A stretch of 64,000 nucleotides of DNA from Escherichia coli (GCF_011045215.1 NZ_CP049201.1); one strand, 5' to 3'; positions 38,365 through 38,703 are shown, counted from the first letter of the stretch. Program-made: numbers and translations. The notes: generated by a model from the letters alone, not told the origin.

Positions 38365-38703
38365 TTATGACTTTTCCCTGAAAGTTTTTCGGTAAAGTCC
38401 TGGTGAACACTGAAACTTTTTGTGGAATATTCTGGTGAAGGCTTGCTGGGAGTCAAAACCATACATCAGACAGATTTCATAAATTGGCATATCTGTGGTC
38501 AACAGGGCCTGTGTTGCCAGATTTAACCGACGTTCACGTATATAACGCCCCAGACTTATTCCCTGATGACAGGTAAACATTCGCTGAAAATACCATATCG
38601 AATACCCGGCATGTTTTGCCACATCCTGTATATGTAACGGTTTATCAAGGTTATTCTCTATCCACTGAACAACATCATTCACGACTCTGGCAGAAAGACT
38701 CAT
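38365..38703 (-). CDS. Small AraC/XylS-family activator of the MarA/SoxS/RamA type (112 aa)
   Basis: Two-HTH architecture with VAKHAGYSIWYFQRMF, LGRYIRERRL and YEICLMYGFDSQQAFTRIF, closely paralleling recalled RamA/MarA. Start set at the second ATG (RBS GAGGT). Confidence 0.7.
   Translation of the reverse strand: MSLSARVVNDVVQWIENNLDKPLHIQDVAKHAGYSIWYFQRMFTCHQGISLGRYIRERRLNLATQALLTTDMPIYEICLMYGFDSQQAFTRIFHKKFQCSPGLYRKTFREKS

Follow-up and report, generated by a model that had tools for sequence, protein, structure and literature searches.

Activators of the MarA type make bacteria intrinsically more tolerant of several drug classes, and some of them are carried by mobile elements. TetD of Tn10 activates a subset of the SoxS/MarA/Rob regulon. 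RamAp, encoded by a plasmid-borne ramA beside a truncated ISEcp1, binds the DNA upstream of acrAB and micF and, according to its authors, raises resistance in E. coli; its gene is nucleotide-identical to the ramA of Klebsiella (PMC13253676). Described here is a regulator gene in a 64,000-nt stretch of Escherichia coli DNA (GCF_011045215.1, NZ_CP049201.1), referred to as the window, in which it lies within an integrative conjugative element (ICE). The protein is a sensor-less activator of the MarA/SoxS/Rob/RamA group with two helix-turn-helix (HTH) motifs and is closest to RamA; comparison across loci shows its gene to be an apparently functional, autonomous transcription unit. On balance, the regulator is considered to be autonomous ICE cargo, a MarA-type activator that would most likely act in trans on host promoters.

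RamA of Klebsiella, Salmonella, and Enterobacter (NF012144; 7bef/7beg) has the same length as the regulator and aligns with it without gaps from Met1, with a TM-score of 0.78; the RamA signature stretches HAGYS, LGRYIRER, and ICL-YGF are present in the regulator, however RamA has Lys, Leu, and Thr where the regulator has Ile36, Phe39, and Ala88. The regulator also differs from RamA in being ICE-borne in E. coli, in its score below the 180-bit cut-off of the RamA model, in its position outside the RamA clade, and in having no ramR/romA synteny. RamAp and the regulator are alike as RamA-type activators on mobile elements whose repressor has been left behind; RamAp, however, passes as RamA, is driven by an ISEcp1 promoter, and resides on plasmids, whereas the regulator is 53.6% identical, has its own promoter, and lies in a chromosomal ICE. 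TetD, found at one compared locus (L024) beside tetC, tetB, and tetR, is likewise a mobile, sensor-less protein of the MarA/SoxS type, but is only 45.5% identical, groups with Rob and SoxS, and, at 138 aa, is extended at the N terminus. MarA, SoxS, and the N-terminal domain of Rob from E. coli have the same fold as the regulator (TM-score 0.79-0.85) and the same W/Q/R in helix 3 and Q/Q/R in helix 6; the regulator differs from them in having neither marR nor soxR nearby, no Rob-type C-terminal domain, and Ala in place of the helix-6 Thr. On a conjugative plasmid of K. pneumoniae (NZ_CP071820.1, 1652-3842; L025), a RamA-family gene is immediately preceded by an ISEcp1 transposase gene, an arrangement that matches the published RamAp.

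Coding Sequence and Fold of the Regulator

38365-38703 (including the stop codon), minus strand: coding sequence of the RamA-like single-domain AraC/XylS activator, from open reading frame (ORF), hidden Markov model (HMM), and structure matches

The ORF runs from an ATG at 38703 to a stop codon at 38365 (339 nt, 112 aa plus stop). An ORF caller extends it to a GTG at 38721 (118 aa); the ATG at 38703 is the codon that aligns with Met1 of RamA, and a GAGG lies 8 nt 5' of it. Pfam returns HTH_18 (1.3e-22) together with two HTH_AraC matches, and NCBIfam ranks the RamA equivalog first (4.3e-46, 155.8 bits), with Rob, SoxS, and MarA behind it; a PDB sequence search places RamA (7bef, 3.6e-39) first and SoxS, Rob, and MarA next, all gapless. 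These HMM and PDB E-values put the match to the RamA family far beyond chance. All 112 aa are taken up by gapless alignment to RamA 1-107, SoxS 5-105, and MarA 10-113, and over this full-length alignment the regulator is a single domain without a sensor, dimerization, or ligand-binding domain. The AlphaFold2 model (pLDDT 92.4) has seven helices as in the MarA fold; Foldseek lists RamA, SoxS, MarA, and Rob on top with TM-scores of 0.77-0.85. The first-pass annotation of this DNA had described a 112-aa activator with two HTH motifs, and the ORF proves real, with Pfam, NCBIfam, PDB, and the seven-helix model in agreement. The likeness to RamA and MarA proposed there was also borne out by alignment, RamA being closest; gapless identity is 50-54% with RamA, 45.5% with TetD, 45% with Rob, 43% with SoxS, and 38% with MarA. 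In RefSeq the protein is labeled only as a 'helix-turn-helix domain-containing protein'.

The Regulator as a Self-Contained Module

38269-39007, minus strand: regulator module, comprising promoter, leader, coding sequence, and hairpin; the outermost piece of the cargo, abutting the ICE backbone
38839-38868, minus strand: sigma-70-like promoter of the regulator, TTGATA, 18 nt, TATAAT; 11/12
38297-38353, minus strand: two adjacent hairpins beginning 12 nt past the stop codon, CCGGCAUGA...UCAUGCCGG, then a T-rich stretch

The regulator occurs in two arrangements in E. coli. In type A, that of the window, the module is followed by a gene for an 850-aa autotransporter; in type B the genes that come next are one for DUF4354 and a convergent one for an unrelated 1111-aa autotransporter. 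The only part of the window common to the type B islands is 38269-39100, which ends 96 bp past the regulator stop codon, and 38336-38970 is common, at 81%, to an unrelated locus (L011). The module is thus bounded downstream at 38269, where type B homology ends, or at 38336, where L011 homology ends, and upstream at 38970 by L011 and at 39008, the point from which an ICE that lacks the regulator is homologous.

Within these bounds a leader of about 130 nt is predicted from the sigma-70-like site (38868-38839), with transcription starting near 38832; both L013, a locus of type B, and the 81%-identical L011 keep the hexamers and spacing of this promoter. The fold 3' of the gene has a free energy of -20.8 kcal/mol (z = -2.69), and 0/200 shuffles were as stable; the hairpins are predicted to form a terminator-like end of the transcription unit, and were missed by a scan for consensus terminators because the loop exceeds 8 nt. 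The ratio of nonsynonymous to synonymous substitution (dN/dS) is 0.095 against the 81%-identical homologue in L011, a value by which the regulator is evidently under purifying selection. Across the type A loci compared (7/7) the protein is 100% identical; the autotransporter beside it is 94-97% identical at the amino acid level and intact in 6/7. Decay into a pseudogene was considered and rejected on the dN/dS value and on the intact ORF, which persists across hundreds of contigs.

Relationship to RamA and Distribution

The score of the regulator against the RamA equivalog NF012144, 155.8 bits, is below the 180-bit cut-off, and the other members of its clade, at 144.8-170.2 bits, are likewise all below it. 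In a neighbor-joining tree drawn without RarA, PqrA, and AarP, the regulator clade is monophyletic in 100/100 bootstraps and RamA in 93/100, with the two joined together in 100/100; the clade is by this measure sister to RamA and not nested inside it. Neither ramR nor romA synteny was found beside the regulator, and no TetR-family gene is present within the cargo of the window. The sub-cut-off score, the tree position, and the absence of an adjacent ramR are the reasons for which the regulator is filed as a sister of RamA rather than as RamA. E. coli is not known to have a native ramA, which speaks against the earlier description of the gene as an 'extra copy' of RamA.

The 90%-identity cluster of the regulator holds 27 sequences, every one named Escherichia. 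Further relatives are three metagenome proteins with 87.5%, 64%, and 63% identity; the next are true RamA proteins at no more than 58%. Among 1.84 billion 50%-identity representatives a single match exceeds 56%, which is this clade's own (212 bits; the next has 129 bits). A species scan with clade-specific peptide patterns, using one genome per species, gave among the matches listed only AraC proteins of Firmicutes with at most 37% identity, and at 60% identity or more the regulator is on 0/72,556 plasmids. A literature search found no name or study for the clade, no paper that mentions its accessions, and no study from which its 'uncultured Escherichia sp.' records come; a search for 'RamA-like' regulators returned RamAp only. 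The family and the type of carrier are already known; the clade itself is without a name and rare. Two variants in the cluster, P0015 and P0032, follow the regulator to about residue 95 and end in unrelated C-terminal tails; P0015, which belongs to an 'uncultured Escherichia sp.' record, looks frameshifted, and P0032, from ENA, looks fused after residue 94.

Genomic Contexts of the Module

Among complete RefSeq E. coli, the regulator is present in 6/5426 genomes, all of type B and most from cattle or farm sources. In one type A locus (L007) a deletion has taken the autotransporter and the regulator has stayed; this locus has a gene for an insertion sequence (IS)-type transposase directly upstream of the regulator, in the place of the helicase gene found elsewhere. 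The 87.5%-identical relative (L011/L012, ~8001-13039) is convergent with a TetR-family gene and has no autotransporter nearby, and the L011 contig is not from E. coli, having no long match to that species. The 64%-identical relative lies 42 bp upstream of mipA. At L011/L012, the TetR-family gene is divergent from an efflux operon of Ytca, AaeA-like, and AaeB-like proteins, with IS elements and a TIR-domain gene nearby. A shared sugar-utilization ancestry of the L011 and type A islands was considered and dismissed, the GH2 genes being only 42% identical. A PADLOC search of the regulator, DUF4354, and MipA for defense systems gave no match.

A further type A locus (L010; GCA_021516685.1, 1-12900) has the same ICE end at pheU, an identical regulator, and the 850-aa autotransporter; the core flank there matches E. 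coli at only 78.6% identity, and the autotransporter on this contig carries the name Salmonella enterica. The element has therefore crossed genera. At another type A locus (L004, 9453-9461) the start codon of the autotransporter gene has become a stop codon, leaving only a 751-aa product from an internal start, with the regulator intact. In strain 8178 an inverse autotransporter gene occupies the same ICE position in an element without the regulator.

The Carrier Element

43423-43498, minus strand: tRNA-Phe gene (pheU), the apparent integration site, adjoining the core genes yjdC and dsbD
42238-43230, plus strand: tyrosine recombinase (ICE integrase); homologous loci are annotated as tyrosine-type recombinase/integrase
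40534-42180, plus strand: ICE relaxase, TraI of the PFGI-1 class, MobH family; TIGR03760, 206.8 against a cut-off of 161.4
39108-40622, plus strand: UvrD-like helicase, divergent from the regulator; the ORF is extendable to 39042

Everything left of pheU in the window is evidently a PFGI-1/ICEclc-class ICE. Besides the relaxase, ICE proteins identified further leftward are TraD and TraC (TIGR03754, 1090.5 against 647.55; TIGR03744, 1394.8 against 520.6), and TIGR03746, 03747, 03749, 03752, 03755, and 03756 all exceed their curated cut-offs in the window. The carrier is likened to ICEEc2 and to the pKLC102/PAGI-2/PFGI-1/ICEclc family by its relaxase, TraD, TraC, TIGR0374x-0375x proteins, and a tyrosine recombinase beside tRNA-Phe; these relatives differ from it in cargo. 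Both pheU and pheV are described as insertion hotspots of ICEEc2 (PMC11537424). The helicase start at 39108 was set by comparison with annotations of 504-505 aa. No second copy of the tRNA 3' end, which would form a flanking direct repeat, was found in the window, so the left end of the ICE is placed beyond position 1. To the right, 43600-51400 is core sequence, 99.9% identical to E. coli, that holds yjdC, dsbD, cutA, dcuA, and aspA.

The regulator sits at the integrase-proximal end of an AT-rich cargo segment (30600-39000) with about 30-52% GC, compared with 52-58% GC in the backbone on either side; the gene with its promoter region has 37% GC. It is regarded as cargo because related ICEs with the same helicase, relaxase, and integrase genes do not carry it, homology to one of them resuming at 39008. 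The suggestion in the first-pass annotation that the gene is island-encoded and horizontally acquired is borne out by its place inside an ICE at pheU.

The Adjacent Autotransporter

34997-37549, minus strand: AIDA-I-type autotransporter, 850 aa; the neighbor in type A, with no support for a role as target
37550-38364, no strand: spacer between regulator and autotransporter, 815 bp

The autotransporter has a beta-barrel match to TIGR01414 (1.7e-119) and an AIDA-type passenger match; its matches to the ECSE_1600, MisL, and AIDA-I models are partial and all below cut-off. It had been noted that the regulator lies on the same strand about 815 bp upstream, and this placement is correct, both genes being on the minus strand with a gap of exactly 815 bp. 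The spacer contains an IS2-like remnant (~37855-38069) and indel breakpoints at ~38037, 38060, and 38193, and the autotransporter gene has a promoter-like site of its own at 37832-37803 on the minus strand (10/12). A DUF4354 remnant was sought in the spacer and not found.

Marbox sites were searched with the degenerate pattern AYNGCACNNWNNRYYAAAY. With at most 2 mismatches there are 12 sites in the window against 17.6 expected, none of them in the spacer or in the regulator's own upstream region. At 3 mismatches the 815 bp of the spacer contain 3 sites against a background of 1.9 per kb, and no GCAC-N8-AAA core is present. The proposal that the regulator controls the autotransporter, for which a marbox upstream of the latter had been named as a check, thus found no site at that stringency; autotransporter regulation is not supported by the sequence comparisons, given the homology that stops 96 bp past the stop codon, the hairpin, the mosaic spacer, locus L007, and the 87.5%-identical relative. 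The two genes seem to have come to lie side by side through mosaic assembly of the cargo, not as a regulatory pair, because the module recurs beside different neighbors, the spacer is mosaic and has no marbox within 2 mismatches, and the autotransporter has its own promoter-like site. AutA/AutR, encoded beside the UpaB autotransporter gene, was considered as a parallel and set aside as belonging to a different family, LuxR.

Contact Residues and Proposed Mechanism

Mutagenesis of RamA assigns H31 to contact with the alpha C-terminal domain of RNA polymerase, and Y75, D76, and D84 to contact with sigma-70 region 4 (PMC8811837). The corresponding positions in the regulator are H31, Y75, E76, and D84, the E76 being conservative for D76 of RamA. 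The DNA contacts of SoxS are Y33, W36, Q39, and R40, all in helix 3, plus T87 and R90 of helix 6 (PMC9638938); 5/6 of these residues are kept in the regulator as Y34, W37, Q40, R41, and R91. With the polymerase contacts and most of the DNA contacts kept, the activation machinery of the regulator appears to be intact, while its DNA affinity or box preference may be shifted.

By analogy with its relatives, the regulator would bind as a monomer to asymmetric marbox-like sites of ~20 bp, with helix 3 (W37, Q40, R41) and helix 6 (Q86, Q87, T90, R91) inserted into adjacent major grooves. It would then recruit RNA polymerase, H31 touching the alpha C-terminal domain and Y75, E76, and D84 touching sigma-70 region 4, for class I/II activation of host promoters in trans. 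The targets may be part of the mar/sox/rob regulon (acrAB, tolC, micF) or a shifted set of envelope genes. Given its AT-rich setting, the gene may normally be weakly expressed or silenced, and the lack of a linked repressor gene together with the 37% GC content suggests that control may be exerted by silencing or proteolysis instead of a dedicated sensor.

Action in trans on host promoters is considered most likely because there is no linked repressor gene and the neighbors vary by locus; such a role has precedent, since the mobile MarA-type activators RamAp and TetD act on host regulons. An effect on AcrAB-TolC efflux and on porins is plausible. It is a tentative further proposal that the regulator raises AcrAB-TolC and lowers OmpF, or runs a shifted envelope regulon by way of Ile36, Phe39, and Ala88, and would thereby confer transferable low-level multidrug tolerance without a classical resistance gene.

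Several observations weigh against action on host promoters through canonical marboxes. The score below the RamA equivalog cut-off is one; another is helix 6, where the regulator has Ala88 at the position of SoxS T87; changing that Thr to Ala (T87A) left SoxS substantially defective at each of the three promoter types tested (PMC9638938). Clade members have A, V, A, or T at this position. In helix 3, the Lys and Leu common to MarA, SoxS, Rob, and RamA are replaced in the regulator by Ile36 and Phe39; because of these three residues, affinity or specificity for canonical marboxes may differ. The type A linkage is also stable, the autotransporter being present in 7/8 loci shown, so that a local role retains some probability.

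Alternative Explanations

The highest-ranked of the alternatives by estimated probability, although an unlikely one, is that the regulator is dedicated to activating the surface-protein cargo beside it (the 850-aa autotransporter in one arrangement, DUF4354 or the 1111-aa autotransporter in the other), comparable to AraC proteins of the Rns/AggR type, which turn on adhesin genes lying next to their own. The same-strand position 815 bp upstream would suit such a role, as would the contiguity of the regulator-autotransporter block at 96-99% identity in 7/8 type A loci, including one from Salmonella, the presence of an autotransporter nearby in type B, and the frequency of envelope-protein neighbors (MipA, DUF4354) in other contexts. 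However, the two arrangements have only the module in common, with homology ending 96 bp past a stop codon that is followed by a hairpin; the type B autotransporter is convergent rather than downstream, the spacer in type A holds the IS2-like remnant and indels, and the type A autotransporter has its own promoter-like site. The locus that lost its autotransporter kept the regulator, the 87.5%-identical relative has no autotransporter nearby, and the same ICE position gathers adhesin genes without the regulator, as with the inverse autotransporter of strain 8178. The spacer, moreover, has neither a marbox within 2 mismatches nor the GCAC-N8-AAA core, and its 3-mismatch matches are near background. 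A dedicated switch for the adjacent autotransporter is on these grounds less likely than action in trans on host promoters.

Ranked next, and more doubtful, is an intact regulator with little effect in E. coli, either silenced or weakened by the helix-6 Thr-to-Ala change and hitch-hiking as cargo; its 37% GC, where the ICE backbone has 52-58%, the absence of a linked inducer-sensing partner, the correspondence of Ala88 to the defective SoxS T87A position, and its rarity (6/5426 complete RefSeq E. coli genomes) are all consistent with such a passenger. Strong purifying selection (dN/dS 0.095), the conserved 11/12 promoter, and a protein that is invariant while the autotransporter drifts to 94-97% argue otherwise, and Val or Ala at the helix-6 position in three clade members suggests a change that is tolerated or adaptive rather than decay. 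Improbable, and ranked last, is action on the ICE itself, in which the regulator would influence excision or transfer through the divergent helicase, relaxase, and integrase genes. In the ICEs of E. coli and Salmonella it always adjoins and diverges from the UvrD-like helicase gene, with which it has a 404-bp intergenic region in common, and this region contains a 3-mismatch marbox-like site at 38924-38943; such sites occur at background frequency, however, and this one is ~100 bp from the predicted start. The regulator is missing from closely related ICEs that possess these three genes, with backbone homology beginning only at 39008; the L011 homologue is not beside ICE genes, and L007 has an IS-type transposase gene where other loci have the helicase.

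Implications for Drug Tolerance

If action in trans on host promoters holds, the ICE would be bringing a RamA-sister activator into Salmonella and into E. coli, the latter not known to have a ramA of its own. The regulator is unnamed and conjugatively mobile, and routine annotation would miss it; with a score short of the cut-off of the RamA HMM, it would also be passed over by resistance-gene finders. Small differences in minimal inhibitory concentration among farm-associated E. coli and Salmonella could be due to it. The natural helix-6 Thr-to-Ala change would furthermore provide a test case for the evolution of box specificity in the MarA-type family.

Other Features of the Window

31850-32590, minus strand: YdeO-like AraC-family regulator in the same cargo; 184 bits, below cut-off
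32781-33569, plus strand: EAL-domain gene in the same cargo, similar to cyclic di-GMP phosphodiesterases
33804-34277, plus strand: truncated UidC-like porin fragment, a relic of a porin/MFS_2/GH2 cluster of which other type A islands keep an intact copy

Two abutting ORFs on the plus strand, 28864-31089 (741 aa) and 31090-31527 (145 aa), span the edge of the AT-rich cargo and are also present at another compared locus (L005); neither of the two matches any model of NCBIfam or PADLOC, and the longer one (741 aa) drew no hit from Pfam even with E <= 10 allowed. Three RNA motifs of known structured types inside the ICE exceed the Rfam gathering score: STAXI at 20904-21057 and 23154-23279 (both plus strand; 109.7 and 85.8 bits), and EFASI at 21564-21721 (plus strand, 55 bits). 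In the core genome, a Guanidine-II (mini-ykkC) riboswitch aptamer is located at 57673-57719 on the plus strand, with 49.3 bits against a gathering score of 32.
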